The notes beneath the pieces were generated by a model, which made no database searches, was not told the DNA's origin, and was given only the letters and a program-made list of their open reading frames with translations. Of a stretch of 64,000 nt of DNA, positions 24,934 to 48,105 are shown piece by piece; within the stretch, counting starts at the first letter, position 1; each line of letters opens with the position of its first letter. Origin of the DNA: an uncultured Roseburia sp. (GTDB taxonomy: Bacteria; Bacillota; Clostridia; Lachnospirales; Lachnospiraceae). Position numbers and translations under genes: made by a program. The stretch lies in the NCBI GenBank assembly GCA_947649645.1, contig CANSSP010000014.1:7067-71066 (forward strand), read 5' to 3'.

Positions 24934-25021
24934 AAGTATCTCTCCTTTTCTTCTATTCTTTACCACACAAGACGGTGTGCCATGCGGCGTTCACCCTCCT
25001 GTGCAATAAGAGACATTTGCG

Positions 25022-25047
25022 AATTATTGCAAACGTTTGCAATAATT
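25022..25047. promoter_or_regulatory. Perfect 26-bp palindromic LacI-family/CcpA cre-type operator in the leader of the ABC-catabolic operon
   Basis: AATTATTGCAAACGTTTGCAATAATT is its own reverse complement. The core TTGCAAACGTTTGCA fits the cre consensus WTGNAANCGNWNNCW. It lies about 55-80 nt downstream of the predicted -10 element. Confidence 0.55.
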
Positions 25048-25105
25048 TTGAAAAAAGAAAGCAAAACCTTCCAATCCACCTAAGGATTGCTTTTGCCTTG
25101 CATAA

Positions 25106-25134
25106 ATACTAACACTCTTACTATTTTTTGTCAA
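25106..25134 (-). promoter_or_regulatory. Sigma-A-type promoter of the Liv-type ABC / catabolic operon
   Basis: The minus strand reads TTGACA-17 nt (AAAAATAGTAAGAGTGT)-TAGTAT, about 170 nt upstream of the substrate-binding-protein ATG. Confidence 0.5.
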
Positions 25135-25252
25135 TATATAATTAATTCACAGAATATTTGTCAGTTTTTCAGGTATTCTGCATAACTGCTCTGGCATATT
25201 CTCCTCTCTGCTTTCTACATACAGAATCTATTATTTTATGGAGAAAATGCCA

Positions 25253-25270
25253 GAATTGCAAACGTTTTCC
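25253..25270. promoter_or_regulatory. Second, imperfect copy of the operator half-site
   Basis: GAATTGCAAACGTTTTCC shares the ATTGCAAACGTTT core with the 26-bp palindrome. It lies about 120 nt upstream of the -35 element. Confidence 0.3.
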
Positions 25271-25308
25271 ATTTTTTCCTGGTTTTTCCACCGCCTTTTC
25301 TTTTCTGT

Positions 25309-26205
25309 TTACTCCGAAAGTCTCTCCTCTTTTTTCCGGATATCTTCCGCAAGATACTCTCGCAGCATACGCGCCTCCGGCCGGCCGCACCCCTGCGCCG
25401 ACAGACTGAAAACCATGCGAAATTCTGCAGTCGGCCACACCCTGACCGCTCTTACATCCGCCGAAACATGCCGCTTTGCCACCTGTCCCATAATCATCGC
25501 CACACCCATCTTTTCTTTCACCAGCCCGGCGATTGTTTCCCCCGATGCTCCGGTATAGACAACCCTTGGCTCAAACCCTGCCCGGCGGCATAGTCTGATG
25601 CTCTGTCCCCGCAGATCCGTGCCCGCATTCAGCAGCAAAAAGCGCTCTTCCGAAAATTCTTTCAGCGGTACCGGCTCCTTAAGATGCGCCAGGGGATGTC
25701 CTTCCCACACAAGCAGCGCCAGCTCGTCCGTGCCCAGTGTTATGCTGTGCGGCTGCAGTTCCTCTGTCGTCTCCGTCCGATAAATTGCCGCGTCACACTG
25801 TTTCCCGGCAGACAGCATCTTTAAGGTGGCATTGTCCTCCTCGCTCAGCAAAATCTTTATTTCGGGATGACGCTCTGTAAACGCACGCAGCCGTTCCGAA
25901 AAACCATAATATCCCAGCACCGGCAGCACTGCAATATGCAGCAGAGCCGGCTGATATCTCACGGCTTTAAGCATCCGCTCATACTGCTCCATCAATGCGC
26001 GCGCTTCCGGCAGCAGCCGCTCTCCGGCAGGCGTGAGCACGGCCTTTCGGTGCCGCCGCTCAAACAGCTGCGCCCCCAGATCCCGTTCCAGACGCGCGAT
26101 CTGCTTTGAGACCGACGACTGCGTCGTGTATAAAGCCTCTGCCGCCTCCGAAAAACTCCCGCTCTCCGCAACACGAAAAAAAAATGTAAGTCTTTCCAGT
26201 TCCAT
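25309..26205 (-). CDS. LysR-family transcriptional regulator
   Basis: The N-terminal wHTH is FFFRVAESGSFSEAAEALYTTQSSVSKQIARLE, followed by a substrate-binding domain. It is divergent from the isomerase-like gene. Confidence 0.9.
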   Translation of the reverse strand: MELERLTFFFRVAESGSFSEAAEALYTTQSSVSKQIARLERDLGAQLFERRHRKAVLTPAGERLLPEARALMEQYERMLKAVRYQPALLHIAVLPVLGYYGFSERLRAFTERHPEIKILLSEEDNATLKMLSAGKQCDAAIYRTETTEELQPHSITLGTDELALLVWEGHPLAHLKEPVPLKEFSEERFLLLNAGTDLRGQSIRLCRRAGFEPRVVYTGASGETIAGLVKEKMGVAMIMGQVAKRHVSADVRAVRVWPTAEFRMVFSLSAQGCGRPEARMLREYLAEDIRKKEERLSE

Positions 26206-26253
26206 ATCATCCCCCTATTCCATTTTGTGAATCAAACATAGCACGAAACGGAA

Positions 26254-26282
26254 TTGCCTGTAAAGAGATTGTGTCTTACAAT
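26254..26282 (+). promoter_or_regulatory. Candidate sigma-A promoter for the isomerase-like gene
   Basis: TTGCCT-17 nt-TACAAT on the plus strand, about 160 nt upstream of ATG 26440. Confidence 0.4.
26268..26282. promoter_or_regulatory. Candidate LysR-type T-N11-A box
   Basis: ATTGTGTCTTACAAT is an interrupted dyad (ATTGT-N5-ACAAT) that satisfies T-N11-A. It lies in the divergent intergenic region and overlaps the candidate -10 element. Confidence 0.3.
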
Positions 26283-26307
26283 AACTGTAAACAGACAAAA
26301 AGATAAC

Positions 26308-26374
26308 GTGTGAAAAAACTGCCATGCTTATTTTTCACACACAGATTTGCGCGGGAGCGTCGCAAATCTGTGTG
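26308..26374 (+). promoter_or_regulatory. Two abutting strong hairpins in the 5' leader of the isomerase-like gene
   Basis: Hairpin 1 is GTGTGAAAAA-N13-TTTTTCACAC (26308-26340). Hairpin 2 is CACACAGATTTGCG-N9-CGCAAATCTGTGTG (26338-26374), with perfect 14-bp arms. The two share 3 nt. Neither is followed by a U-tract. Confidence 0.45.
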
Positions 26375-26439
26375 ACGGCAGACGCAGACCTGTAATCCTG
26401 CGCGCCCCGTCGCATTTACGCTCCGGAATGGAGGTTGCC

Positions 26440-27711
26440 ATGAAAAAAATATACGCTTTTTTTACCGCACGCAGATACTGGAAAGAGGAAAAAGAACTGA
26501 CAGACGCCTTTCTTGCGATCGCCGGGCTCATTTCCGGAGAAAATACCCGGGATTGTTTTCTGATCGAGGACGGAAATGGAATGGATAAACTGCCGGAGGC
26601 AGACTGTCTTATCGCCATTCCCATGAGCGGCGCCGTCCAGCGGGATGTTCTTAAGGCGGCAGACCGCTATCCGTGCGTCGTTCTGTGGGCAGCTTATATC
26701 CGCGGCGGGCAGCTTTCCGAGACAGTGACAAACGAAATGCTGCGCCACAACGCGGCCCCTGCCTTTATGGACTGCTGGGCGGTACTGCGCCGCACGCACA
26801 GACATAGTTATCCTGCCTTAAGCGTCAGGGAGCTTAAGGACATACTGCGAATCCATGAGGCTTACTGTCATGTAAAAAAATCCAGACTTCTTGTGATCGG
26901 CGATACGGAACCATGGGTAATCAGCAGCAGCAGAAATTCTGCCATTTATGAGGAGCGTTTCGGCCTGACGATTGAACACGTTCCACAGAAAGAAATCGCA
27001 GACCGCTACCGCTCGACGACGGATGCCGACGGTTCGTTTTATTATGATTACTTCCTGCGGCACGCGCACGACTGCAGGGAACCCGATGATCAGGATATCC
27101 GCAACGCCGCAAGGATGGCTTCCGCGCTCGCAGAAACCTTAAACGCTCACGACGCACAGGGCTGTGCGCTCGCCTGCTTTCGTCTGCTCGCGGAAGGAAC
27201 CAACCTCTGCCTGGGTGTAAGCTACATCAACGACTGCACCGACAAAATCGTCTCCTGCGAAGGAGATATGGACAGTGCCGTCACCATGCTTCTGATGAAA
27301 AAACTCACAGACAGCGGCCTCTGGATGGCCAATCCGGCATTCAATCCCGATAAGTCCATCCATTTCTCCCACTGCACTGCACCCGTACATGCCTGCGGCA
27401 GCGCGCTGCCGGTCATTCTGCGCAGTCACCATGAGAGCGGCATCGGCGTCAGCCTGCAGGTTGATCTGCCGCTTCACCAGACCGTCACTGCCTGCCGTAT
27501 CTCCGATGAAGCATCCTCTGTCACGATTCACACAGGAGAATCCATAGAAGGACCCTATGCGTGCGCCTGCCGTACCCAGATGCATGTAAAATTAAAAGAT
27601 CCCGATCACTACCTGCGCACCGCCCTGGGCTGTCACCAGGTCTTTGCATTTGAAGACATCTCCCGGCAGATGGCGCAGCTCGCAGAATTGTTTTCGCTGA
27701 AAATACTGTAA
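26440..27711 (+). CDS. Sugar isomerase-like protein (L-fucose/L-arabinose isomerase family resemblance, tentative)
   Basis: The ATG at 26440 is preceded by GGAGG 5 nt upstream. The 423-aa soluble protein has a C-terminal block (VSCEGDMDSAVTMLLMK) that resembles the conserved metal-site region of FucI/AraA-like isomerases. The family call is from memory and has not been searched. Confidence 0.5.
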   Translation: MKKIYAFFTARRYWKEEKELTDAFLAIAGLISGENTRDCFLIEDGNGMDKLPEADCLIAIPMSGAVQRDVLKAADRYPCVVLWAAYIRGGQLSETVTNEMLRHNAAPAFMDCWAVLRRTHRHSYPALSVRELKDILRIHEAYCHVKKSRLLVIGDTEPWVISSSRNSAIYEERFGLTIEHVPQKEIADRYRSTTDADGSFYYDYFLRHAHDCREPDDQDIRNAARMASALAETLNAHDAQGCALACFRLLAEGTNLCLGVSYINDCTDKIVSCEGDMDSAVTMLLMKKLTDSGLWMANPAFNPDKSIHFSHCTAPVHACGSALPVILRSHHESGIGVSLQVDLPLHQTVTACRISDEASSVTIHTGESIEGPYACACRTQMHVKLKDPDHYLRTALGCHQVFAFEDISRQMAQLAELFSLKIL

Positions 27712-27740
27712 TTCAGAGAATCAGAAAAATCCATATGATA

Positions 27741-27787
27741 AAAAAGAGTGCAAAGCCGCTGAAATTCAGCGGACTTTACACTCTTTT
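27741..27787. terminator. Bidirectional rho-independent terminator between convergent genes
   Basis: AAAAAAGAGTGCAAAGCCGCTGAA-A-TTCAGCGGACTTTACACTCTTTT forms a stem of about 19 bp with two mismatches. It is flanked by an A-run and a T-run, so it can terminate both the plus-strand gene and the minus-strand operon. Confidence 0.65.
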
Positions 27788-27867
27788 GGGTATGATGCGC
27801 AATCACTATTTATTCTGCTATCTTTCCTGTCGCCAGAAAGGATGTCGCATGCAGTGTATAAAATTGC

Positions 27868-29136
27868 TTACGTAAACGCCAGTTCATCCTCGTCAGCGTC
27901 TTCTTCCTGCGTCTGTTCGTTCTCTTCCGCCTCCGTCTCAAAATCAAAATCGGTGACAACCTCTGCCTCTTTCGCATCCGTCTGCTCCGGTGCAGCCGCC
28001 TTTCTGACAAACGCCACGACCTGATCCTTCTTTTCCTTCAGCCATACGAGCATTTTTTCCAGTCTGCGCTTCAAAGGGTGAATCACATTTTCCTCAAGAA
28101 CCGGCATCGCGTTTTCCTTAACCCAGCGGACGGCCGGTCTGTATATCTTATTTGCAAACACGCCGATTACGTCCGCGATCACCTTTTTTACCTTTTCCGC
28201 CGCCGATTTCACATGTGGCTTTGCCTCTTCCAGCGCCTTTTTTACGTACGGAATCGCTTTCTTTACGGACTCATAAGCAATATCGCTGACAGCCAGGAGC
28301 GCAAGAATGCTTAAAACAGTCGTGGAAGCAATCACCGTCAGCGCTCCCAGTCCCTGTAAAATCCCAAGCCCCGTAATCGCCGCCGCACACAGAAGAACGA
28401 GTCCTGTTACCGTGACCGCAAGCGCCGCCGGAATAGCCATCCAGACATAATCCATCGCCTTGTCCCCTTCACTCTCTGCGGTGTGAACCGCCGCAGCCGC
28501 AGCCGCTTCCTCCGCAGATATCTGCGGCTGTTCGCTTAAAAGCAGCGCTGCCGAGAGAATCATGAGATCTTCCCTGGCCTCGTCCGTAATACCGGCTGCA
28601 GCGCCCTCCGCCGTCTCCAGAATCGGTGTCCAGGATTCGTCTTTTGCCGCCCGCTTTACCGTATCGCGGATCCCTTCCCTGTCTTCCGGAAGGATGGATT
28701 CCAGCTCGGACCGCAGCGTCTCCAGCTCGCCTGCCGTAGCATTTGCCGCCAGCCCCTGCTCCGTATCGTGTGTCTTTGTCAGCATCTCCCTGACAAAATC
28801 CAGATCCATTCCCTGCTCTTTTAATTCCTCTTTCGAATATTCCAGATTCCTGAGCCCTGCCACATATTTCAGATCCGAAATCCTGCGAAACTGCGCCGCG
28901 ATATCTTTCCCGCACTGCTCGTCGATCTCCTCAAACACCGCGATGCGCACATCTCTTCCGGAATACTTCTTTTCCAGCCGGTCTGCCTCCGAATTGATCT
29001 CGTGAACCATCCTGCGGATCGACTCCGTCTGGTCTGCGATCGCATCCCCTAAGACTGCACGGATCGCCTCCTCCACGGAACATCCCTGATTCCTGTTTTT
29101 TGCCATCTCTTCCAGTTTACTGTTTATCTCGCTCAT
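27868..29136 (-). CDS. Membrane protein with helical N-domain, central TM cluster and acidic C-terminal tail (last gene of the AAA+/GTPase operon)
   Basis: The start at MSEINSKLEEMAK follows AGAGGAGGAA. The hydrophobic stretch MDYVWMAIPAALAVTVTGLVLLCAAAITGLGILQGLGALTVIASTTVLSILALLAV predicts two to three TM helices. The C-terminus is EAEENEQTQEEDADEDELAFT. I recognised no family. Confidence 0.7.
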   Translation of the reverse strand: MSEINSKLEEMAKNRNQGCSVEEAIRAVLGDAIADQTESIRRMVHEINSEADRLEKKYSGRDVRIAVFEEIDEQCGKDIAAQFRRISDLKYVAGLRNLEYSKEELKEQGMDLDFVREMLTKTHDTEQGLAANATAGELETLRSELESILPEDREGIRDTVKRAAKDESWTPILETAEGAAAGITDEAREDLMILSAALLLSEQPQISAEEAAAAAAVHTAESEGDKAMDYVWMAIPAALAVTVTGLVLLCAAAITGLGILQGLGALTVIASTTVLSILALLAVSDIAYESVKKAIPYVKKALEEAKPHVKSAAEKVKKVIADVIGVFANKIYRPAVRWVKENAMPVLEENVIHPLKRRLEKMLVWLKEKKDQVVAFVRKAAAPEQTDAKEAEVVTDFDFETEAEENEQTQEEDADEDELAFT

Positions 29137-29164
29137 AGATGATTCCTCCTCTCTGTTTAATCGT

Positions 29165-29193
29165 AGTATATACAATCAACATCTAAATGTCAA
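29165..29193 (-). promoter_or_regulatory. Internal sigma-A promoter in front of the last operon gene
   Basis: The minus strand reads TTGACA-17 nt (TTTAGATGTTGATTGTA)-TATACT, about 30 nt upstream of ATG 29136. Confidence 0.5.
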
Positions 29194-29217
29194 TCTTTTA
29201 TTTGTATTTTATTTAGA
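29176..29217. repeat. Copy A of a duplicated AT-rich promoter-proximal motif
   Basis: TCAACATCTAAATGTCAATCTTTTATTTGTATTTTATTTAGA shares four blocks with copy B at 36058-36094: TCAACA, AAATGTC, TTTTAT and a 15-nt identical run TGTATTTTATTTAGA. Confidence 0.6.
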
Positions 29218-30952
29218 TATTTTTTAATTTTTCTATTTCCATTTTGATAAAAGCATCCAGCCGGTTGTCGTAACGGCTTTTCCCGTCCTCTGCATCACTC
29301 TCACAGGATGCGCTGCTAAAGCCCGCTCTCAGGGAAGACTGGCTGTACCTGGCGATCTCCTCCGCATTCGTCTCGCTGAACACCTTCATTTTTCGAAATT
29401 CCCGAAGGAGAACCTCCGACAGATGCTCTCTGTCATATGCCTCCTTCGCCTCCCTGTCCGCCGTTCCGCCATAATCCAGATACAGTCTCCTGAACCCGGC
29501 AGATACCAGCGCACTCGCATCTGCCCCGGTCATAAACCTTTTTTCCGCCGTCGCGATCGCGATAAGCTCATCAACCGCGGCTTCCGCCACAGGCTGCACA
29601 TGCACCCGCTCCGGTTTTTGCAGATGCACCATCAGAATCCCACGCAGCTCTTTCTCCGTCGGCATCGATGTAAAGAAGCATTCGTCAAAACGGCCTTTCC
29701 GGAAAAACTCCGGCGGCAGTCCGGCAATGCTGTTTGCCGTGGCGATAATGTAGCAGGAGCTCTTCTTCTCCTGAAGCCAGGTCAGAAAACTGCCTGTCAT
29801 ACGCTTTAAATAAGCGCTGTCGCCATTCCCTCCCCCGCCGGAGCCTGCAAATCCCTTCTCAATCTCGTCGATCCACAAAATGCACGGCGCCATCTCCTCC
29901 GCCTGTCTTTGTGCATTGCGCAGATTCCGCTCGCTGTCGCCCACATGGCCGCCCATCATGCGCCCCATCTCAAGCCGGATCAGCGGCATCTTGAGCTCTG
30001 CAGCCGCATACTGCGCAAACAATGATTTTCCGGTTCCCGGAAGTCCCATGATAAGGATTCCCTTCGGCACGTCAACCCCCTGCTTTCCGGCCTCCTGAAG
30101 GCTGCTCATAATTCTGCCGCTCTCGCGCAGATACTGTTCCAGCCTCTCCATATTCGCCATGTCCACGTGCCTGACCATCTTCCACTCCAGAAGCTTGTCT
30201 TTTTCCAGAAGCTTTCCCTTTTCACTGCCGATCAGTTCAAGAATCCGCTTACGCTGCGGGTCAAATGCCTCCTCACCGTACATCCGCTCTGCCCGCTGCA
30301 TCAGATAGTCCATCTCAAAACACTGGAATCCCTGCAGATAAGAAACGATCTCATGTTTAAAATTTTCTTCGATCTTCAGATTCCGTCTGGCCAGAAGCTC
30401 CTCCACGTTTTCGCGGATTTCAACGGGCCCGGGCTTTTCCCCGTGAATCACGTGCACGTAAGGAAAAAGTCCATCCGGCAGATTTTCGATTCTGTCCACG
30501 GTAAGGAGGATGAGCATCCTCCCGTCTGCGCTTTCCGTCTTAAGAAAACGGGACAGCGCAGACACACAGCGGATCTGGTTTTCCCGGTCAAACTGCTGAA
30601 AATCTTCAACGATAAGAAAACCCGCCATATGCTCCCCGGCCAGTTTTTCCAGTGCAACGGCGGCGTAACTCGCCGGATGTACATCGGCAAGTCCAAGCAC
30701 GTCGTCTGGAAGTCTGCGCTGGATATTCAGTCCCTGACAGACGACAGGGGCATACACGACTTTTCCCGACACCGTTTTTTCTCCGTACCGCAATATCATA
30801 TACGGAGCCGTCTTCCCCTTAAAATAATTCCTGTACAAAAGCTCCGTCACAGGCTCCCATTCCTGCCGGTGCCCCATCTCCAGAACAATTCCACACTTAC
30901 CGCTGGAATATACCTGATATATCTCCTCCGCCATCTTCTCCGCTGCGCGCAT
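29213..30952 (-). CDS. Classical-clade AAA+ ATPase with an uncharacterised ~290-aa N-terminal region
   Basis: Walker A is GLPGTGKS, Walker B is ILWIDEIEK and sensor 1 is IIATAN. The second region of homology, LPPEFFRKGRFDECFFTSMPTEKELRGIL, carries Arg fingers. AGGAGAA lies 7 nt before the ATG. Confidence 0.85.
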   Translation of the reverse strand: MRAAEKMAEEIYQVYSSGKCGIVLEMGHRQEWEPVTELLYRNYFKGKTAPYMILRYGEKTVSGKVVYAPVVCQGLNIQRRLPDDVLGLADVHPASYAAVALEKLAGEHMAGFLIVEDFQQFDRENQIRCVSALSRFLKTESADGRMLILLTVDRIENLPDGLFPYVHVIHGEKPGPVEIRENVEELLARRNLKIEENFKHEIVSYLQGFQCFEMDYLMQRAERMYGEEAFDPQRKRILELIGSEKGKLLEKDKLLEWKMVRHVDMANMERLEQYLRESGRIMSSLQEAGKQGVDVPKGILIMGLPGTGKSLFAQYAAAELKMPLIRLEMGRMMGGHVGDSERNLRNAQRQAEEMAPCILWIDEIEKGFAGSGGGGNGDSAYLKRMTGSFLTWLQEKKSSCYIIATANSIAGLPPEFFRKGRFDECFFTSMPTEKELRGILMVHLQKPERVHVQPVAEAAVDELIAIATAEKRFMTGADASALVSAGFRRLYLDYGGTADREAKEAYDREHLSEVLLREFRKMKVFSETNAEEIARYSQSSLRAGFSSASCESDAEDGKSRYDNRLDAFIKMEIEKLKNI

Positions 30953-30998
30953 CGCTCTCTTCTCCTTCCTGACACCCCGGATAACTCCGCCATGCGGG

Positions 30999-31898
30999 TT
31001 ACTGTAACAACGACAAAAGCAGCAAACCTGCCGCAGCCGCAGCCAGAATCCAGACAGGCAGATTCCATCGTCTCCGGGGCAGCGCCGGTTCCTCCTGCCT
31101 GTTCTTCACCTCTGTCCGCAGCTGTTCCGTCCGCCGCACCAGCGCCTCCCGCTCTTTTTTTCTCTTCTCTTCTTCCGCAGACTCCCGCTCCAGCTGTACT
31201 TTCAGACTGCCCTCTTCCGCAGACTCCGTCCGATACAAAATCGCCACATCCTCCGTCACCGTCGTCATCCCGTCCGGAAAGAGATCCAGCATTTTTTTTG
31301 CATCCTCCACGCACAACAGCCCTGTCGCGGCCGGCCTCTGCAGGCCCTCTTTCCACAGCTTCTCATCTGCCGCTTCCGAACTCTTTATGATATTCCATTT
31401 TTCTCTCCGGCGGCCTGCGTCCACACAGGTCCCGCAGCCGGCAGGAGGCGGGGCCTCCGATTTGGACAATACGGTTCTGGCCGCAGATTCCCGCAAATTT
31501 GTGCCGTACTCCACACCCTGGATTTCACACAGCTCTTTTTTGAGCGGTTCAAACAGCTCATCCTCCCTCCGGTACTGCCGGATGTCTTTTCCGGTAAAGC
31601 CAAATGCCAGCACACAGTACTGTCTGCGGAACGCGCCTCCTGTAAAAGCTGTCCCCAGAAGTTCTTCCTGCTCTCCCGCCACGGCGGTTACATAGATCGC
31701 ATCGTCAAGAAAACCGGAAAACCAGCACCGCTGCCGTTGTGCCGCCCCATATCGTTTCGCCGTGGACAGCATGCGTCTTGAAATCGTCTTCATGATATCC
31801 CGGTGCACGTCAAGGCCCGGGTCGCATCTGCGGATAAGGTAATCTCCCTCATCCCCCTTTTTTCTCGCGTTTGCATATATCCAGAAATACACCGCCAT
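30999..31898 (-). CDS. Hypothetical protein, paralogue B (C-terminal coiled coil plus TM anchor)
   Basis: It starts MAVYFWIYANARKKGDEGDY after GGAGGTAGGC. It shares two conserved blocks with the upstream gene product. It ends with a charged coiled coil and the hydrophobic tail WNLPVWILAAAAAGLLLLSLLQ. Confidence 0.7.
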   Translation of the reverse strand: MAVYFWIYANARKKGDEGDYLIRRCDPGLDVHRDIMKTISRRMLSTAKRYGAAQRQRCWFSGFLDDAIYVTAVAGEQEELLGTAFTGGAFRRQYCVLAFGFTGKDIRQYRREDELFEPLKKELCEIQGVEYGTNLRESAARTVLSKSEAPPPAGCGTCVDAGRRREKWNIIKSSEAADEKLWKEGLQRPAATGLLCVEDAKKMLDLFPDGMTTVTEDVAILYRTESAEEGSLKVQLERESAEEEKRKKEREALVRRTEQLRTEVKNRQEEPALPRRRWNLPVWILAAAAAGLLLLSLLQ

Positions 31899-31927
31899 GC
31901 CTACCTCCTATGCCAGAACTTCTTTCC

Positions 31928-33139
31928 CTACTCTGCGTCGTCTTCTCCTCTGAGCCGCAGAACCGCCCTGCGCAGCATACAATTGGTCTGAAGCAGTTTC
32001 TTTTCGGCGACCTGCTCCTCCATTGACTGAAGCAGCAAAGGCAGCTCTTTGCCAGCCGGCAGCTTTCTGTCCTCCTGCCGGAAGATCCACAGCCGCATAC
32101 AACAGAAATAAAAAAGCTGTTCCGCGACTTCCCCTGTCCGTTTCATCTTCTGCACCGCCTTATGCGCCACGGCAACCTCTTCCGGCCACAGTTCGCTCTT
32201 ACAGTGTTCGGCACACACCCTGATTTCCCTGCGCTTTACTTTTCCATACCGGGACTTTCTTAAATCCACTACCAGATCTGCCGCCGTCCGGGACGGCCTG
32301 CCAGAGCTTCTCTCTCCGTCCGCGCCCAAGGCCTGTGATGCGGCACTTTCTCCTGCAGGTCCGGAACGCTCTTTCCTGTACACTTCTGCCGCGGTATCCT
32401 TCACCGCCGCTGTCTTTTCCGCTCTGACCAGGATGCCGCTCGCTCTTAATTTTTTCCTGTCGTCCTCGCTCAGTCCCGATGCCGGAAACTGCTGCGGACG
32501 CAGTTCTCCCGTCACTGTGACAATTCCGTCCGGAAACACTCCCAGAAGTTTTTTTGCATCCGCCTCGCTCAAAATTCCCGTCATTACAGGCCTCTGCAGA
32601 CTCATCTGCCACAGCGTGGCATCCACATCCGGCGAACTGGGAACTATATTGCCGCGTGCATCATGCCTGGCCGCATCAGACACCGTCTCCCGATATGCCC
32701 CGTAATCCTGCCGTTCCAGCGGCCCCTCCGCCGTCCCTTTCCCGTCCGTCTGCTGTATCTGGCTTAAAATCTTCTCCAGCGGCTTGAAAACACGCAGATC
32801 CCTGCGCACAAGTCCGATATCATCTCCGTCAAACCCCAGCGCAAATACGCCGTACTGCCTCCTGAAGCCACCCCCATCCAGGGACATCGCCAGAAGCTCT
32901 TCCTGCCTTCCCGCCGCGGCCACCACAAAAAACCGTATCTTTTTATCAAGAAAACCGGAAAACCAGCAAATCTGCGCCTCTGCCTCCCCATAACGCTTTG
33001 ACGTGGAGAGCATGCAGCGCGAAAGGGAAATCATCTGCGTCCGGTATTTTGTAAACTGCGGATCACAAAACCGCACCTGATAATCTCCGCTGTCCCCTTT
33101 TCTCTTTGCGTTTGCATAAATCCATCCATATACCGCCAT
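31928..33139 (-). CDS. Hypothetical protein, paralogue A (soluble C-terminal extension)
   Basis: The start is chosen at the ATG giving MAVYGWIYANAKRKGDSGDY, with GGAGG 5 nt upstream. The track ORF begins 12 nt earlier at a GTG. The N-terminal ~130 aa and the LW..LQRP..TG.L...DAKK.L..FPDG..TVT block are shared with paralogue B. Confidence 0.7.
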   Translation of the reverse strand: MAVYGWIYANAKRKGDSGDYQVRFCDPQFTKYRTQMISLSRCMLSTSKRYGEAEAQICWFSGFLDKKIRFFVVAAAGRQEELLAMSLDGGGFRRQYGVFALGFDGDDIGLVRRDLRVFKPLEKILSQIQQTDGKGTAEGPLERQDYGAYRETVSDAARHDARGNIVPSSPDVDATLWQMSLQRPVMTGILSEADAKKLLGVFPDGIVTVTGELRPQQFPASGLSEDDRKKLRASGILVRAEKTAAVKDTAAEVYRKERSGPAGESAASQALGADGERSSGRPSRTAADLVVDLRKSRYGKVKRREIRVCAEHCKSELWPEEVAVAHKAVQKMKRTGEVAEQLFYFCCMRLWIFRQEDRKLPAGKELPLLLQSMEEQVAEKKLLQTNCMLRRAVLRLRGEDDAE

Positions 33140-33183
33140 TTCTGCCTCCACGCATCTTTATCTCTTTTCTTCCGGCCGATCGT

Positions 33184-34353
33184 TTACCGGAAAAATTCTT
33201 CAAGCGGAATCCGCTCTCCTTTTTCGTCCACAAGACAGGCGTAACTGCCCGACCCTACATAATCCAGAATGTCCTGTGAATACTTCTTAAGCGTATTGTT
33301 CTGTTTCATTCTTTCCTGCTCGACTTTCAGCTCTCCGATCTCTTCTTTTGCTTTCTGGATCTGAAATTCCAGCCTGCGGATATCTTCCCTCTCCATTTTC
33401 AGGATTTTTAAAAGCCTTGTCTGGAACTGGTTTGCAATCGCCCCTTTTTTCTCCATTTTGTTGAAAACTGCCAGCTCCTGTTCTGCAATGGCCGCGTCAA
33501 TCTTTGCATTTTCTTCCTGTTCCCACTCTTTTCCCGCCTCTGACAAAGCATAACCGACCGTGAGCATCAGAGGAATCTCAAATCCCTCGGGCGCAAACCC
33601 GGCAACGATATTGTTTCTCTCTTCACTCAGCCGGATATCGCGCCCGAGCGTGGAGTGGCAGCATAAAATTTTACGGCCGCATTTCAGCAGCTCGTTTGCC
33701 TTGAGAAATGAAACAATCTCTTCGAGTTTGCGGTTATCATCGTCATACTTGATGTAATCGGACTGCGTGACGTAAAAAAGAACCGGCGTCTCGTCGCCAC
33801 TGCCCCTGAGCTCCTTCGTCTTTTCCATCAGTGTGTTGATATGCGAAACCTCCTCGCTGATATCAATCCTTTTGAGCGCCTTTTTTTCTCCCGTCAGGCT
33901 GCCGTCCCTGATGGAAATAAAATCGTTGATCAGCTCTCCCGAAATAATATAAATCAGCAGCGTCGCACGTTCCAGCATCTCAAAAAAATGTTCCCAGTCC
34001 CCGTCGTCATAATCCGTCGTCCGCAAAGACCCGCGATAGTCCATCCAGCGGATCTGGCAAAGCTTCTCACCGTTTCTGCGGAATGCAAAATCATAGATAT
34101 GATCGTCCGTGCTGCCGACCGGAAGCGTCCCCTTAATCATATCCCTGTACTTCTCGGCAAAATCGTGAATATCGCCCCCTGCAGAATTGCCGCTCGCAAT
34201 CAGGTCAAACCGGATATCGCCGCCCAGGGCAACCCCTCCGTCCATTGCCATTTTAAAAAAGGTATTGCAGGCCGCCACGGTCTTTCCGCTTCCCGAGCCC
34301 CCTGTGGCAAGGATATTTGCCCTTTTATTTCCAAAAAACTGAATCTTTTCCAT
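33184..34353 (-). CDS. P-loop NTPase with GTPase-like motifs and a C-terminal coiled coil
   Basis: G1/Walker A is GGSGSGKT (aa 18-25). A G3-like motif is WMDYRG and a G4-like motif is VTQSDY. The C-terminal ~110 aa are heptad-rich and charged (IRRLEFQIQKAKEEIGELKVEQERMKQ). Confidence 0.7.
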   Translation of the reverse strand: MEKIQFFGNKRANILATGGSGSGKTVAACNTFFKMAMDGGVALGGDIRFDLIASGNSAGGDIHDFAEKYRDMIKGTLPVGSTDDHIYDFAFRRNGEKLCQIRWMDYRGSLRTTDYDDGDWEHFFEMLERATLLIYIISGELINDFISIRDGSLTGEKKALKRIDISEEVSHINTLMEKTKELRGSGDETPVLFYVTQSDYIKYDDDNRKLEEIVSFLKANELLKCGRKILCCHSTLGRDIRLSEERNNIVAGFAPEGFEIPLMLTVGYALSEAGKEWEQEENAKIDAAIAEQELAVFNKMEKKGAIANQFQTRLLKILKMEREDIRRLEFQIQKAKEEIGELKVEQERMKQNNTLKKYSQDILDYVGSGSYACLVDEKGERIPLEEFFR

Positions 34354-34394
34354 GTCGTGTTCCTCTCTTCTTTCCGTACCAGAAATACTGTTCT

Positions 34395-34913
34395 CTATGA
34401 TTCCAGCCTTTTATGGATGTCTTCGATCATTTTATCGCAGTTCTCGATAAACATCTCCAGCATGACATACTCTTTTAGTTTCTCCTTTTTCAGCTCCGCA
34501 ATTCTCTCAGCCTGCTCCAGCAGATATCCGCGCATTTCCTGCGTGTCTTTCTGCTCCGGCGATGCCGCTGCCAGCCGGACCTTCCACTCGATCAGCATCT
34601 CGTTCTCCTTCCTGAGATAAGAGTCTGCCGCAGAATCTTCCTTTTCCGTCAGCATCCTTACCTTTGGCACAGGCTCCATGGAAAGACAACGCTTTTTATA
34701 TTCCCCCAGCATCGCAGGCGTGATCTTGTCAAAGCACCGGAGCACCTCATCCTCCGCAATCTGATACCCCTCTTTGTTGGACTTTAACAGAGCCTTCAGC
34801 CTGATATCAGGATCGTCGATCATCTTTTTAATTTTTTTGCTCAGATACTGCTTATTCCCTCCCGTGATCTCCGAAAGCATCCCCACGGTAAACATAAATG
34901 TCTCGTCAAGCAT
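34395..34913 (-). CDS. Small HTH-like / coiled-coil protein
   Basis: The start at MLDETFMFTVGML follows GGAG 8 nt upstream and overlaps the upstream stop by 8 nt. The upstream part of the longer track ORF is R-rich and overlaps the preceding gene. The N-terminus (FTVGMLSEITGGNKQYLSKKIKKM) looks like an HTH. The C-terminus is a coiled coil. Confidence 0.6.
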   Translation of the reverse strand: MLDETFMFTVGMLSEITGGNKQYLSKKIKKMIDDPDIRLKALLKSNKEGYQIAEDEVLRCFDKITPAMLGEYKKRCLSMEPVPKVRMLTEKEDSAADSYLRKENEMLIEWKVRLAAASPEQKDTQEMRGYLLEQAERIAELKKEKLKEYVMLEMFIENCDKMIEDIHKRLES

Positions 34914-35994
34914 CTTCAGACTCCGTTTCATCATCCCATTCTTTATCAGTGAGGTTCCATGCGTCCTCTCTCTCCGGCTCCAGCGCCTTCTGCCTCTCCG
35001 TCCCGGGGAAAAAGAACCGCAGAAAATCTTCTTTTTCCGGCAGGCCGATATCCTGCTTTTCTTTACAGTGCTTCCACAGGGAATGCAGGCCGACCACTGC
35101 CACCGTACACACAATGGCAGGCTCAAGCAGGACGGTCAGAACCTTTGCCGCGGCAAATACGGCTGCCACTGCCGCCAGAACCTTTGTATTTTTCTTTGAA
35201 AAAATCCGTCCCAGATATGCCTGCATCTGACGCGTCACACTTCCCGCGTCCTCCCCTTCTCTGATCATCGCGGCGGCGGAGACACAGACCGGAATGACCT
35301 GTTCCCATAAAAGCTCCTGCTCTTCTTTTGTAAACGGTTCTTCCCTGTCGCAGAAAATCATCTCCGACAACAGAAAGTTTGTCAGAAATCGAATGTCGCG
35401 GTCGATTTCTCCCCGCGACGGACTTGTAAATTCCGCCGGCCGGCCCACACCGATCTCCGCCAGGATTCTGCGCGTCTCATCATCATAGCCGGCTCCTGCA
35501 TAGCGCATCAGAGACACCACGTCTGCAAACAGCTCCTGCATCTCGCCGTCTGACACATCAGCGTCTGCCCGCGCCCACCTGGTCTCGTATTCCCGGTCAA
35601 ACATCTGTTTTAATCTTTCACCGGAATCCCCGTCGACAAACCGCAGAAAATGATAGCAGCTTAAGAGCTTCACATTCAGAAGATACCGGTACTGTTCCGC
35701 ACTATCCATCTCCAGCTCGCTGATTACATTGTCAAGCATCTCCGCGCCCTGCCAGGGTTCCAGCGGCTCCGATACCACAGCGGCTCCCACAAAAGCGGCA
35801 TATTGCTGCTCACTCTGTCTCCAGGCCGCGGCACGCCGGTAAAACACGGCCTGATGGTCGACCAGGTCTTTTTTCTCTTCTCTGTGAAATTCCACATATT
35901 TCTGCAGTGCAAAATCTTCGGCGCGGGCTTTGGGATGCTCTCTCTTATAAAGCAGCCACTCGTTCAAAATCGCTCCGATCTCTTTCTCCTCCAT
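34906..35994 (-). CDS. Membrane protein with helical N-domain, TM hairpin and acidic C-terminal tail (first gene of the operon)
   Basis: The start at MEEKEIGAILNEW follows GGGAGGGG. Two adjacent hydrophobic helices are present (VLAAVAAVFAAAKVLTVLL and AIVCTVAVVGLHSLW). The tail is ...NLTDKEWDDETESEDA. Confidence 0.65.
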   Translation of the reverse strand: MEEKEIGAILNEWLLYKREHPKARAEDFALQKYVEFHREEKKDLVDHQAVFYRRAAAWRQSEQQYAAFVGAAVVSEPLEPWQGAEMLDNVISELEMDSAEQYRYLLNVKLLSCYHFLRFVDGDSGERLKQMFDREYETRWARADADVSDGEMQELFADVVSLMRYAGAGYDDETRRILAEIGVGRPAEFTSPSRGEIDRDIRFLTNFLLSEMIFCDREEPFTKEEQELLWEQVIPVCVSAAAMIREGEDAGSVTRQMQAYLGRIFSKKNTKVLAAVAAVFAAAKVLTVLLEPAIVCTVAVVGLHSLWKHCKEKQDIGLPEKEDFLRFFFPGTERQKALEPEREDAWNLTDKEWDDETESEDA

Positions 35995-36033
35995 TACGAC
36001 CCCTCCCGTCGGACAACGCTCTTCTTCTTTTTT

Positions 36034-36061
36034 ATTATAATGGGATGTCAAAAAAAGTCAA
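36034..36061 (-). promoter_or_regulatory. Sigma-A promoter of the seven-gene operon
   Basis: The minus strand reads TTGACT-16 nt-TATAAT, about 40 nt upstream of ATG 35994. Confidence 0.55.
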
Positions 36062-36094
36062 CAGAAATGTCGTTTTATATGTATTTTATTTAGA
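36058..36094. repeat. Copy B of the duplicated AT-rich promoter-proximal motif
   Basis: TCAACAGAAATGTCGTTTTATATGTATTTTATTTAGA aligns with copy A at 29176-29217. Two small indels separate four identical blocks. Confidence 0.6.
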
Positions 36095-36210
36095 CAGATA
36101 AAATAAAACAACCTTAAAACACGGTACAGTGGCTGCGGACAGAAACGGCCGCGTTTTTTTAGACGCAGAAACTCCGGCAAAAAAATTTCTGCCGGAGTTT
36201 CGCAATTCGT

Positions 36211-38424
36211 CTATCGGCCGGTCTCATACCGAAATGCTGCCACGAGGCAGTCTGCGGCATTTCGCCCGACAAATACTTCAAACATCCCAGGTTGTGCCGC
36301 AAATTGAAGATCGCTGTCGTAAAATTTCAGCATTTCCTCCGTAACCTCAAAAATCACTTCTTTCTTTTCGCCCGGCTCCAGATCAATTTTCTGAAATCCC
36401 TTTAATTCCTTCGCCGGCCGGACCACGCTGGCCGCCACATCGTGCAGATAAAGCTGGACTACCTCCTGCCCGGCCACATCTCCGGTATTTTTAACCGCAG
36501 CACCCACTGTCAGCGTCTCACCACGGCGCAGCACCGTATCACTGAGCTTAAGATCAGAATATTCCGCCGTATGATAGGACAGGCCGTAACCAAACGGGTA
36601 AAGCGGCTCGTTCGGGCAATCCAGATAACGGCTCACAAAACGACCGCTGTGTGAGGATGCATCCGCCGGCCGCCCCGTGCGGAATGCGCCATAATAGACC
36701 GGAACCTGGCCCGATGCAAAGGGAAAGCCAACCGTCAGACGCGCACAGGGGTTACATCTGCCCCACAGCAGATCCGCGATTCCGTGCGCGCCTTCCGTAC
36801 CTGGAAACCAGCATTCCAGTATCGCATCCACGGAATCTTTCCAGTCGGCGAGCACCAGCGGACGGCCGTTAAACAACAGAACAACCGATTTTTTTGCATG
36901 CACTAAAACGCGCTCCATCCATGCACGCTGCACGGCGGGCAGCGTCAGATCGGTCCGGCTTCCGCTCTCTCCGCTCTGCAGCATATGTTCTCCCACGGCA
37001 AACACTACCACGTCGGCCCATTTTGCCAGCGCAATCGATTTTTCAAGCTCTTCTTCGGCAGAGTTTTCCAGCGTCGGTCCCAGCTTAAAGTAAGAACCAA
37101 AATCGCCGAGACTCTCATAGTCATCCAGCATCTCACACCCTGCCGTCGTGGCAAAGGTGTCTTCGGAAAGCACTTCGGCAAAAGCAGTCTTTAACGTCAC
37201 CACCGCATCCCTGTCACCGTGGACCGCCCACATGCCGTTTAAGTCCTTACTGTCCGCATAGGGCCCCATCAGTGCAATCTTCTGCCCGCTTTTCAAAGGA
37301 AGCACCTGATTTTCATTGCGCAGAAGCACCATGCATTTCTGTACCGCAGTGCGTGCCGCGCTGCGGTTTTCTTCATTACAGGCCAGACATTCTGCTTTCT
37401 CCGCGTCGATTCCCCTGTATGGATCTTCAAACAGCCCGAGTCTGTTCTTAAGCGCCAGGACACGCCAGACCGCTTCGTCCAGCTTTTTCACATCAAGGCT
37501 CCCGTCATTTAAAAGCGGCTCAAGCTGATTTGCATAACAGGGGGTTTTCATATCAATATCCACCGTGGCGTTCATCGCCAGTTTTGCGGCCTCATAGTCG
37601 TCCTCCGCAACGCCGTGGGCGATCAGCTCCTGAATCGCGGCGTAGTCGGTAATCAGCACCCCGTCAAACCCCCACTGCCGGCGCAGCACTTCTTCCATAA
37701 GCCACCGGTTCGCCGTCGCCGGAATCCCCTCTACCGTGTTAAAGGAAGTCATCACCATCTCACAGCCCGCATCTACGGCAGCTTTATACGGCGGAAGATA
37801 TTCCTGTACAAAACGCCAGCGCGACATATCCACCGTATTGTACTCTCTTCCCGCCTCAACCGCACCGTAACCGGCAAAATGCTTTACGCAGCTTGCCAGA
37901 TTCTCCCCGGGAACCATTTCTCCCTGAAAGCCTTCTACCATCGCGCGCGCAAATACCCCGTTCAGCCAGGGATCTTCCCCCGGAGATTCCATACAGCGTC
38001 CCCACCGCGCGTCGCGCACCACGTCCACCATCGGTGCAAACGTCACATGCGCGCCGTCCGGCGCCGCCTCCCTGGCAGTCCTTCTGCTGCATGACTTCAC
38101 AAGCTCTGTATCCCAGCTGCAGGCCAGTCCCAAAGGCATGGGATAAACCGTCTTATACCCATATACGATATCCGCCATAAACAAAAGAGGAATACGGCTG
38201 TTCTCCATATGACGTTTCTGAATCTCCCTGACCTTATCTGCCCCCAGTACATTGAGCGCCGACCCGGCGTTCTGCACGGCCCACGGCTCGATTCCCAGCT
38301 TCTCCTGCGGGCCGGTAGCCAGATCCGAGGCCCCGAAAAAATCTCCCGAAAGCTGTATGAGCTGGCCGATTTTTTCCCGCACTGTCATTGACTGCAAAAG
38401 TTCCCGTAATTTTTTTTCTTCCAT
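36211..38424 (-). CDS. bglX: GH3 beta-glucosidase, BglX-like (canonical domain order)
   Basis: The N-terminus MTVREKIGQLIQ, the motifs KHFAGYGA and GVLITDYAAI (nucleophile Asp), and a C-terminal FnIII-like domain (VKNTGDVAGQEVVQLYL) are present. Length is 737 aa. Confidence 0.9.
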   Translation of the reverse strand: MEEKKLRELLQSMTVREKIGQLIQLSGDFFGASDLATGPQEKLGIEPWAVQNAGSALNVLGADKVREIQKRHMENSRIPLLFMADIVYGYKTVYPMPLGLACSWDTELVKSCSRRTAREAAPDGAHVTFAPMVDVVRDARWGRCMESPGEDPWLNGVFARAMVEGFQGEMVPGENLASCVKHFAGYGAVEAGREYNTVDMSRWRFVQEYLPPYKAAVDAGCEMVMTSFNTVEGIPATANRWLMEEVLRRQWGFDGVLITDYAAIQELIAHGVAEDDYEAAKLAMNATVDIDMKTPCYANQLEPLLNDGSLDVKKLDEAVWRVLALKNRLGLFEDPYRGIDAEKAECLACNEENRSAARTAVQKCMVLLRNENQVLPLKSGQKIALMGPYADSKDLNGMWAVHGDRDAVVTLKTAFAEVLSEDTFATTAGCEMLDDYESLGDFGSYFKLGPTLENSAEEELEKSIALAKWADVVVFAVGEHMLQSGESGSRTDLTLPAVQRAWMERVLVHAKKSVVLLFNGRPLVLADWKDSVDAILECWFPGTEGAHGIADLLWGRCNPCARLTVGFPFASGQVPVYYGAFRTGRPADASSHSGRFVSRYLDCPNEPLYPFGYGLSYHTAEYSDLKLSDTVLRRGETLTVGAAVKNTGDVAGQEVVQLYLHDVAASVVRPAKELKGFQKIDLEPGEKKEVIFEVTEEMLKFYDSDLQFAAQPGMFEVFVGRNAADCLVAAFRYETGR

Positions 38425-38595
38425 ATGCTGCTTTACTCCTTCCAGATTTCCTGTTATTTCAATTTTAACACATCTGGACAGACAGTAAATTCTTTTTTGA
38501 AAAACACACTATTTCTTTCACAGAAAAATGACCCATAAGCATAGCCCCCGGAGGGCGCGATATAAACCCCCCGGAAATCAGCTATCCTGCGCAGA

Positions 38596-40215: not shown

Positions 40216-40293
40216 ATCCTTCCTGATTTTATAGAAAAAGAACTGAAAAAGTATCTTTTTCTACAAATATTTTATGCAGCTGTGAAATACCCG

Positions 40294-41373: not shown

Positions 41374-41393
41374 ATTATTCCCTCCTCTCTGAC

Positions 41394-46879: not shown

Positions 46880-46882
46880 CCT

Positions 46883-48088: not shown

Positions 48089-48105
48089 CTCTGAATTTAA
48101 AGAGT

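Follow-up and report, generated by a model that had tools for sequence, protein, structure and literature searches.

The closest described relatives of the system considered here are the GTPase-centric (DO-GTPase/GAP1) conflict systems, which were computationally defined by Kaur, Burroughs, Iyer & Aravind in 2020 (PMC7159879). In these systems one or two paralogous GTPases are accompanied by a downstream GAP1 protein that is often fused to a C-terminal transmembrane (TM) segment or to polar extensions; TM components are present in 67% of them, and the effectors, which include caspase-like peptidases, are variable (PMC7159879). A survey of the phage shock protein (Psp) response offers a second point of reference, as it lists DO-GTPase2 next to psp operons and reports a protein of the "inactive classical AAA + classical AAA" type next to PspA or TM-Snf7, including in Clostridium (PMC11237479). 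Literature searches for a defence system that joins a GTPase to an AAA+ ATPase returned these two papers as the only relevant ones, and neither describes the cassette that is our subject: seven genes, g1 to g7, at 27868-35994 on the minus strand of a 64,000-nucleotide stretch of DNA from an uncultured Roseburia sp. (contig CANSSP010000014.1, positions 7,067 to 71,066 of the forward strand), hereafter called the window.

This cassette is a real, strictly conserved and extremely rare gene set of gut Clostridia. Its GTPase, g3, is by profile comparison a divergent member of the DO-GTPase superfamily, and the layout around it copies that of the GTPase-centric conflict systems (PMC7159879); the cassette would therefore be a new branch of a described kind, and not something unrelated to all known systems. 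The original prediction made for this stretch of DNA, which had declared the operon impossible to place in any named system, is not supported on this point. As to function, our leading interpretation, which we hold tentatively and at a little under an even chance, is that the cassette represents an undescribed branch of these conflict systems that is gated by its GTPase, executed by its AAA+ ATPase and active at the membrane, most probably against phages or other mobile elements.

A fixed seven-gene cassette

The cassette consists of seven co-directional open reading frames (ORFs), each with a GGAGG-like ribosome-binding site before it. The first two overlap by 8 nt, and the successive gaps after them measure 41, 44, 29, 46 and 76 nt. 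The original prediction had described these ORFs with their lengths and spacing, a TTGACT-16-TATAAT promoter, a bidirectional hairpin terminator, a paralogous relationship between g4 and g5, and diagnostic motifs in two of the products, and all of this was recovered: the proteins are 362, 172, 389, 403, 299, 579 and 422 aa long, the regulatory sites and the paralogy are as detailed below, and the motifs are GGSGSGKT, DYRG and TQSD in g3 and GLPGTGKS, ILWIDEIEK, ATAN and RKGRFD in g6. Its description of a self-contained, membrane-associated module with two nucleoside triphosphatases (NTPases) also agrees with the strict gene order, the presence of a true GTPase and a classical-clade AAA+ ATPase, and the three membrane-anchored proteins. 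The hydrophobic segments of the latter (residues 270-307 of g1, 278-299 of g5 and ~230-291 of g7) are kept in all homologues, as are the acidic tails of g1 and g7.

One genome from each of 185,579 species was scanned, and 14 cassette loci emerged, all with the same gene order; this answers a question about conservation in other genomes that had accompanied the initial description. All 14 are in Lachnospiraceae or Oscillospiraceae metagenome-assembled genomes (MAGs), many of them from mouse or chicken gut, and are labelled Lachnospiraceae, Roseburia, Eubacterium, Limivivens or Oscillibacter, except for two unclassified "bacterium" MAGs and one labelled Bacteroides fragilis. In the last case (locus L020/L011, JAMPFK010000018.1) the contig is titled as a Bacteroides fragilis MAG, its protein carries the name Blautia sp. 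at NCBI and all of its relatives are Clostridia; the contig is probably mislabelled or mis-binned. An index of 5.8 billion proteins held 14 clusters of g3 relatives, and a metagenome scan with a broadened GTPase alignment turned up two further cassette copies and nothing else. The order g1-g2-g3(-g3')-g4-g5-g6-g7 is the same in all complete related loci at protein identities of ~30-60%, and was seen intact down to ~31% identity; g7 is missing in one lineage (L005/L006). The window and the related loci resemble each other in DNA sequence within 27989-35761 only, and similarity stops at the cassette edges. Each locus has different flanking genes, and none is conserved between them.

The seven genes evolve at different rates. 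Pairwise comparisons place g2 and g6 as the most conserved and g1, g4 and g5 as the least; between the loci L011 and L021, for example, identity is 82% for g2, 81% for g6, 72% for g1, 67% for g5 and 54% for g4. This pattern fits a constant engine with fast-evolving sensor and effector surfaces, and relaxed constraint would also fit it.

Comparison of all seven proteins with family libraries (Pfam, PADLOC, NCBIfam and PHROGs) detected the AAA+ domain of g6 alone. A PADLOC comparison proposed in the original prediction turned out in the same sense: the cassette is absent as a system from PADLOC-DB v2.0, where g6 alone drew matches, to the generic IetA and TRIP13 AAA models, and the best E value among the other six proteins was 0.011. 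Sequence and profile searches of the PDB with g1, g2, g3 and g4/g5 gave no significant match, and for g1, g4, g5 and g7 there was no match in Pfam, PADLOC, NCBIfam, PHROGs or PDB. The original prediction could not assign five of the seven products to any family; these four still fall in no described one. No Rfam family was found in 25000-39000, and no tRNA in the window.

The GTPase and its paralogous partners

The product of g3 (33184-34353, minus strand; 389 aa) combines a G domain with a long coiled-coil hairpin, and a PLxxFF motif is conserved at its C-terminus. Across 15-18 family members the G1 motif GxxxxGKT, the G3 motif DYRG, the G4 motif TK[SA]D and a C(H)STLG block are conserved, and G5 is conserved too. 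The G4 motif reads TQSD in the window copy and in P0001, which is 93% identical to it, and TK[SA]D in every other member (consensus TKSD); the TQSD variant puts a glutamine in place of the guanine-contacting lysine. An AlphaFold2 (AF2) model of g3, with a mean confidence (pLDDT) of 85.6, has a G domain and, after it, a long helical hairpin, and Foldseek searches with this model place Arf, Arl, Ras and Rag on top, with longer-range matches to atlastin, GBP and mitofusin. By its motifs and its predicted structure, g3 is a true GTPase of the TRAFAC class with an Arf/Ras-like fold. There is no Ras-type catalytic glutamine after DxxG, and therefore hydrolysis is probably dependent on a partner or on dimerisation.

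Several loci (L003/L025, L009, L010, L021/L027 and L023) contain two adjacent g3-type genes, and the window and the remaining loci contain one. Where there are two (for example L003:8348-9526, L021:3540-4625 and L023:7355-8533), the first copy often has an eroded G3 motif, which reads DYNN in L021 and DYPS in L023. The erosion suggests that the first copy may serve as a pseudo-GTPase partner in a heterodimer.

The connection to the DO-GTPases came through a plasmid. A tblastn search of plasmids with g3 matched a single protein, encoded on pANA01 of Anabaena sp. 90 (E = 2e-5), which adjoins a paralogue, WP_015081677, that passes the Pfam DO-GTPase1/2 models with 57 bits. Alignment of the g3 profile with hhalign gave a probability of 97.9% and E = 5e-13 against WP_015081677, and 98.9% and E = 4e-17 against the neighbouring WP_015081676; these alignments share the WxDYRG, TKxD and SLG blocks. 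The superfamily is represented in Pfam by PF19975 and PF19993, whose gathering score the window g3 does not reach, with no DO-GTPase match at E <= 1. When 18 family members were scanned, three matched DO-GTPase2 (the best at 3.8e-4 and 20.6 bits, against a cut-off of 27) and two matched DO-GTPase1, all below threshold. DO-GTPases are stated to have a conserved glutamate in the Walker B motif, and 60% of them have one or more N-terminal zinc ribbons (PMC7159879). The corresponding strand of the g3 family reads [WYL]xDYRG, with a near-invariant aspartate and no conserved glutamate, and the Pfam-positive Anabaena protein reads SWSDYRGS at this position. The alignments reveal no zinc ribbon in g3, as the P-loop lies within ~20 residues of the N-terminus with no cysteine cluster before it. 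We conclude from these comparisons that g3 is a divergent DO-GTPase superfamily member.

At 58804-77598 of NC_019428.1 (L030) the Anabaena locus encodes a DO-GTPase pair, one member above and one below the Pfam threshold, together with a helix-turn-helix (HTH) protein, Hsp70, a CHAT-domain protein, a C39 peptidase and two dynamin-family genes. GTPase-centric systems have been described as nearly absent from cyanobacteria (PMC7159879).

Directly downstream of g3, in the position of GAP1, lie g4 (31928-33139, minus strand; 403 aa), which encodes a soluble protein, and its paralogue g5 (30999-31898, minus strand; 299 aa), whose product ends in a single C-terminal TM helix that would serve as a tail anchor. 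The two are 50% identical over the first 215 residues (E = 8e-65), and both have long polar linkers. In g4 a novel N-domain of ~130 aa is followed by a second conserved block (~165-215), the linker and a helical C-domain, and the length of the protein ranges from 363 to 558 aa across loci. The g4 homologue at L005:6471-8147 contains a low-complexity tandem peptide repeat in its linker (GIEKGYRIGKEYGIEKGDGIEKRYGIGKEDG...). A TM helix at or near the C-terminus of g5 was present in seven of seven homologues scanned, with ~39 residues beyond it in L007. In L006 the apparent fragmentation of g4 is explained by a 100-N scaffold gap, and we therefore do not regard this copy as a pseudogene.

When 1.84 billion representative proteins were searched exhaustively with the g4/g5 N-region in HMMER, 51 relatives emerged, ~40 of them strong; a word-indexed search for homologues that used the N-domain alignment gave a single fragment. 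With only 51 relatives, the g4/g5 family is essentially confined to the cassette. Neither protein is homologous to g3, and neither gives a signal for the Roadblock, longin or DENN families. The AF2 model of g4, built from seven sequences, is poor (pLDDT 49.7), and its Foldseek matches (best E = 0.3, TagF among them) were discarded as meaningless. Also set aside was P0062, a protein of 1534 aa with nSTAND1 and WD40 domains, for which 13 matches to the second block arise through the WD-repeat motif "ARLWDL..ERPVATVLEGH" and were judged coincidental.

The weakest match of the exhaustive search, P0067 (E = 3.7e-4), retains the GDYxxRxCD motif and leads to a related locus of different composition. 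At L012:7522-11017 (Logan ERR11591917) a small hydrophobic protein of 124 aa and a caspase-like Peptidase_C14 protein are followed by a g3-family GTPase (360 aa; motifs GGRGFGKT, WLDYPG, TKAD and CTLG) and, directly after this GTPase, by P0067 as the g4/g5-like protein (338 aa). FRG, Macro and 1185-aa genes lie further upstream, and this neighbourhood includes no AAA+, g1, g2 or g7 gene. From this variant it follows that a GTPase and a g4/g5-type protein form a core dyad to which different output modules can be attached; such swapping of output modules is typical of conflict systems.

The ATPase, the membrane proteins and the promoters

The product of g6 (29213-30952, minus strand; 579 aa) is a classical-clade AAA+ protein whose AAA domain (~289-514) scores 91.5 bits against Pfam AAA (PF00004), for which the cut-off is 21.2; its best PDB relatives are VAT, Cdc48 and p97 (E = 1.7e-42), and it matches phrog_8638 at 7e-64 over residues 126-488. 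The Walker A motif GLPGTGKS, the Walker B motif ILWIDEIEK and the sensor 1/second region of homology (SRH) segment ATANS...FFRKGRFD, with both arginines, are invariant. The N-terminal 250 residues align weakly but colinearly with the AAA domain (E = 0.015), such that "FLIVEDFQ" falls on Walker B and "LILLTVDRIENLPDGLFPYV" on the sensor-1/SRH region; this part of the protein (~20-250) is, on that alignment, a probable degenerate AAA tier. Beyond the cassette, the closest g6-like ATPases have part of the N-terminal domain in common with g6. Among them are one on a C. butyricum megaplasmid (L031, NZ_CP073278.1) whose neighbours are a WYL regulator and recombinases, one beside TnpB and an integrase on Calditerrivibrio pCALNI01 (L032), and one near the lysis genes of Agrobacterium phage JP1 (L029). 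We rejected the phage matches as a sign of phage origin, since they are generic AAA ATPases with uninformative neighbours.

The remaining membrane proteins flank the set. The first, g1 (34906-35994, minus strand; 362 aa), begins with a helical N-domain and ends in an acidic tail, with a hydrophobic hairpin of 38 aa between them (residues 270-307). The last, g7 (27868-29136, minus strand; 422 aa), also opens with a helical N-domain; after it come a hydrophobic cluster of 60 aa (~230-291), a basic amphipathic helical region and, at the end, a tail that is strongly acidic. An hhalign comparison of the two (E = 6e-4, probability 28%) indicates that they may be distant paralogues. The gene that overlaps g1, g2 (34395-34913, minus strand; 172 aa), encodes a protein with a coiled-coil C-terminus and a mean column identity of 60%. 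A Pfam scan of 30 g1, g2 and g7 sequences, 12 of which were g2, returned only faint sub-threshold HTH hints (HTH_Crp_2 in five of the 30 and MarR_2 in three); further hints for g2 were TcaR (0.042) and top PDB matches, themselves non-significant, to MarR and MerR regulators. Together these point to a probable winged HTH in the g2 N-domain.

Two promoters serve the cassette. P1 (36034-36061, minus strand; TTGACT-16-TATAAT), which would drive g1-g6, matches 11 of the 12 sigma-70 consensus positions and is the best promoter-like site of the region; P2 (29165-29193, minus strand; TTGACA-17-TATACT), in the gap between g6 and g7, also matches 11 of 12 and would drive g7. Each is preceded on the same strand by a copy of an AT-rich element: O1 (TCTAAATAAAATACATATAAAA; 36073-36094), a putative operator or UP element, lies 11 nt upstream of the -35 box of P1, and O2 (TCTAAATAAAATACAAATAAAA; 29196-29217) lies 2 nt upstream of that of P2. 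The 22-nt element TCTAAATAAAATACA[T/A]ATAAAA has exactly two matches in the window at <=3 mismatches and none in 100 shuffles. As the element precedes both P1 and P2, the cassette can be regarded as two co-regulated transcription units, g1-g6 and g7. A bidirectional intrinsic terminator hairpin closes the cassette (27742-27787, minus strand; -30.5 kcal/mol, z = -9.8), with an A-run and a T-run on either side.

The arrangement extends to the related loci. A core, AAA[AG]TA[CT]ATATAA, is found before both g1 and g7 even where the proteins of the loci are just 30-40% identical; of its 34 matches in 288 kb, 23 lie <=160 nt upstream of g1 or g7, all gene-oriented and within ~1.4% of the sequence searched. 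Copies of the core are frequently in tandem with a spacing of 9-11 nt. The element was also seen upstream of g1 and/or g7 in L001, L003, L009, L010, L022, L023 and L024, and in most related loci a TTGACA-type promoter preceded by it lies upstream of g7. In L011, L021 and L017 a palindrome, TCTAAATAAAC-N7-GTTTATTTAGA, is found instead and overlaps the g1 promoter.

These features make g2 a candidate binder of O1 and O2. The alternative, which we regard as doubtful, is that the element is an UP element only, a part of strong constitutive promoters, and that g2 is a structural or adaptor subunit and not a transcription factor. The position of the element (~-38 to -58), its A/T-richness and its place against near-consensus -35 and -10 boxes that need no activator would all agree with this, as would the non-significance of the matches behind the HTH assignment and the translational coupling of g2 to g1 through the 8-nt overlap. 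However, an UP element would not readily account for a specific core that is retained across such divergent loci, for its frequent tandem copies, for its occurrence nowhere else in the window, or for its replacement in some loci by a palindrome that overlaps the promoter, an arrangement typical of operator sites.

Function, context and relation to known systems

If the cassette is a conflict system, we infer for it a set of interactions, a trigger, an effector role for g1 and g7 and a defence function along the following lines. The g1-g6 and g7 units, each with its near-consensus promoter and AT-rich element, would be bound and autoregulated by g2. Within the complex, g3 would act as the molecular switch, its Arf/Ras-like G domain carried by a coiled-coil stalk, and the fast-evolving soluble g4 and tail-anchored g5 would take the role of GAP1, tethering g3 to the membrane and regulating its nucleotide state; it is probably g4 and g5 that would sense the trigger. 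The activated GTPase complex would then license g6, a Cdc48-like AAA+ protein with an inactive N-terminal tier, to engage the membrane proteins g1 and g7 by their acidic C-terminal tails. Remodelling or unfolding of their cytosolic domains would free the hydrophobic hairpins, disrupting the membrane and aborting the infection.

Several observations weigh against this interpretation. None of the cassette components corresponds to a validated defence protein; g1, g5 and g7 show no signature of SLATT or of another pore-former; and g3 has no relatives among IMG/VR viral contigs or INPHARED phages. The partner role proposed for g4 and g5 finds no echo in a Pfam scan of 23 members, in which no family, the GAP1 models included, matched at E <= 1, nor in an hhalign comparison of g4/g5 with the protein downstream of the Anabaena GTPases (probability 0.2%, no homology). 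In g6 the pore-loop-1 position is occupied by His or Leu and not by an aromatic residue, so that processive unfolding cannot be taken for granted. Plain metabolic genes make up several flanks, the counts of defence neighbours come without a control set, and the rarity of the cassette precludes reading any population-level signal. Both types of NTPase are known next to Psp/Snf7 membrane-stress genes, so that a non-immune role at the membrane fits equally. DO-GTPase systems are, to our knowledge, a large predicted class of which none has been experimentally tested.

Such a non-immune role is the main rival reading: an accessory membrane-stress or membrane-remodelling machine, in which the GTPase and the AAA+ ATPase assemble, disassemble or repair a membrane-bound scaffold of g1, g7 and g5. 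Envelope stress would induce the cassette by way of g2, and the machine would have its analogues in PspA/Snf7 with Vps4-like ATPases or in GTPases of the dynamin/atlastin type. We consider this unlikely, while recognizing that much of the cassette would suit it. DO-GTPase2 occurs next to psp operons and a two-tier AAA protein next to PspA or TM-Snf7 (PMC11237479), and g6 appears to have the same two-tier architecture; three of the seven proteins are membrane-anchored; the succession in g7 of a TM cluster, a basic helical region and an acidic tail resembles the charge polarity of ESCRT-III; and the longer-range fold matches of g3 are to atlastin, GBP and mitofusin. However, the PspA/Vipp1/Snf7 partner that such an AAA+ protein would have is not seen: among the 30 g1/g2/g7 and 23 g4/g5 sequences scanned there was no match to PspA_IM30, Snf7, flotillin or dynamin at E <= 1. 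In addition, a patchy distribution of 14 loci in 185,579 species is unusual for stress homeostasis, the context is different at every locus, and the related GTPase with its g4/g5-type partner in L012 stands beside a caspase-like peptidase in company with FRG and Macro domains.

The genomic context is varied. In the window, a GH3 glycosidase gene, collagen-like and glycosyltransferase family 2 (GT2) genes and, at 8.6 kb, an Ssp-like locus lie upstream of the cassette; downstream, a convergent ORF is followed by a LysR regulator and an amino-acid ABC transporter. The convergent ORF (26347-27711, plus strand; ~423-454 aa) shares the bidirectional terminator with g7, has no Pfam match at E <= 0.001 and is not conserved as a neighbour of the cassette elsewhere. 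The Ssp-like phosphorothioation locus (44681-54315) encodes a PAPS_reduct + 4Fe-4S protein (591 aa), a DUF4007 protein (322 aa), a 1197-aa protein with a faint DUF6079 match, an Aminotran_5 protein (401 aa) and a GmrSD_N protein (732 aa), a set that by its Pfam domains is consistent with SspDBCA and SspE; the Ssp locus that had been noted at this distance is therefore present, as an Ssp-like locus by those domains. At 38596-42125, two collagen-triple-helix repeat proteins (539 and 243 aa) surround a GT2 glycosyltransferase with TPR repeats in what looks like an exosporium or surface-fibre gene set, which is not beside the cassette elsewhere. Within 10 kb of other loci we found McrB (L011), integrase fragments with an nSTAND/DUF815 ATPase (L003), ParE (L005), and a PAPS-reductase/ParB pair, an M78 peptidase and P4 cII (L001); the 91 flank ORFs include a type II restriction-modification system and PDC-S02. 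These defence and mobile-element neighbours, together with the rarity of the cassette and its changing flanks, speak for the conflict-system reading. No flanking direct repeats suggesting insertion were seen in the window, and the flanking GH3 protein has no exact copy on record, hence no empty site was seen.

The least probable of the explanations weighed here is that the cassette is mobile-element cargo with some other selfish or developmental role (exclusion, addiction, or a lineage-specific sporulation or cell-surface function) in which the NTPases act on element-specific substrates: its discrete boundaries in unrelated contexts, the integrase fragments, ParE, P4 cII, M78 peptidase and transposase-type neighbours at some loci, the g6 relatives on megaplasmids and in phages, and the collagen-like and glycosyltransferase genes near the window copy would agree with it, but the window copy is flanked by no integrase, relaxase, replication or tRNA att signature and has an unremarkable GC content like that of its surroundings, the loci have no flanking gene in common, collagen-like neighbours are peculiar to the window, and no copy is found on a viral contig or in a phage genome, the sole plasmid match of g3 being the distant Anabaena pANA01 DO-GTPase.

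Returning to the reading of the cassette as a branch of the GTPase-centric conflict systems, its most novel form is that of a new membrane-acting immune machine, in which a DO-GTPase with a novel heterodimeric regulator, one half of it tail-anchored, licenses a Cdc48-like unfoldase that pulls on acidic tails to produce lethal pores or scaffolds. We think this specific version improbable, and its consequences would be considerable: it would constitute a prokaryotic counterpart of GBP/atlastin-type or ESCRT-III/Vps4-type membrane immunity, provide the first functional link of a DO-GTPase switch to an unfoldase, and bring in four protein families (g1, g4/g5, g7 and, in part, g2) with folds that have not yet been described. 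Interest is limited by the great rarity of the cassette, its restriction to uncultured gut Clostridia and the inferred nature of its function. Even so, it joins a DO-GTPase and a two-tier classical AAA+ protein, each previously seen separately next to membrane-stress genes, and four of its seven proteins have no relatives outside the system. If the AAA+ protein does act on the membrane proteins, the cassette would be either a bacterial immune system whose effectors are switched on in a new manner or a membrane-remodelling machine of a new type. With its compact and fixed composition, two mutable NTPase active sites, an identifiable cis element and candidate effectors, it offers a tractable entry into DO-GTPase switches.

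It is informative to set the components beside those of known systems, beginning with the more distant. IetAS is reportedly a defence system, described by Gao et al. 2020. Although g6 matches the PADLOC IetA models at 1e-17 over its AAA domain, this similarity is generic to the classical AAA clade; the NCBIfam IteA model gives 60 bits against a cut-off of 510, the cassette has no protease gene that could be the partner IetS, and we reject the identification. In its organization the cassette also recalls MglA/MglB, Rag/Ragulator and the Streptomyces conservons, in that an Arf/Ras/Rag-like G domain adjoins two paralogous partners, and the likeness extends to a GTPase without the catalytic glutamine after DxxG, implying hydrolysis that is supplied by a partner or dependent on a dimer. 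Unlike these small-GTPase regulator modules, g4 and g5 give no Roadblock, longin or DENN signal, and the resemblance is organizational only. The helical hairpin stalk of g3 is shared with the membrane GTPases atlastin, GBP and mitofusin.

For g6 the closest comparison is with the Cdc48/p97/VAT unfoldases, its best PDB relatives, with which it shares both Walker motifs (A and B) and an SRH that contains two arginines. It differs from them in having one active ATPase domain and a His or Leu in pore-loop-1, and in lacking a Cdc48-type N domain, a MIT domain and a protease domain. The apparent combination of a degenerate N-terminal tier and an active C-terminal tier is rather that of the "inactive classical AAA + classical AAA" proteins (PMC11237479), although those stand next to PspA or Snf7 and the cassette has no detected partner of either kind.

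The comparison with the DO-GTPase systems is the most extensive. The differences are that g3 falls below the Pfam thresholds and has no N-terminal zinc ribbon; that its partner is a paralogue pair with no detectable similarity to GAP1-N, -M or -C; that no GASH, FNIII, SLATT, tubulin or HSP70 component is present, with no GASH or FNIII Pfam match in any cassette protein; that a Cdc48-like AAA+ protein, g1, g2 and g7, all unreported for those systems, are constant members; and that the content is fixed across loci, in contrast to the variable effector sets of the described systems, with only the distant L012 swapping modules. Against these stand a GTPase that is homologous to the DO-GTPases (hhalign 98-99%) and occurs in one or two paralogous copies, a partner gene immediately downstream of it whose product has polar extensions and can end in a TM helix, further TM proteins (the TM segments of g1, g5 and g7 being conserved), a mobile neighbourhood with a patchy distribution (14 loci in 185,579 species), and a related variant that carries a caspase-like peptidase, all of which the cassette has in common with the GTPase-centric conflict systems.

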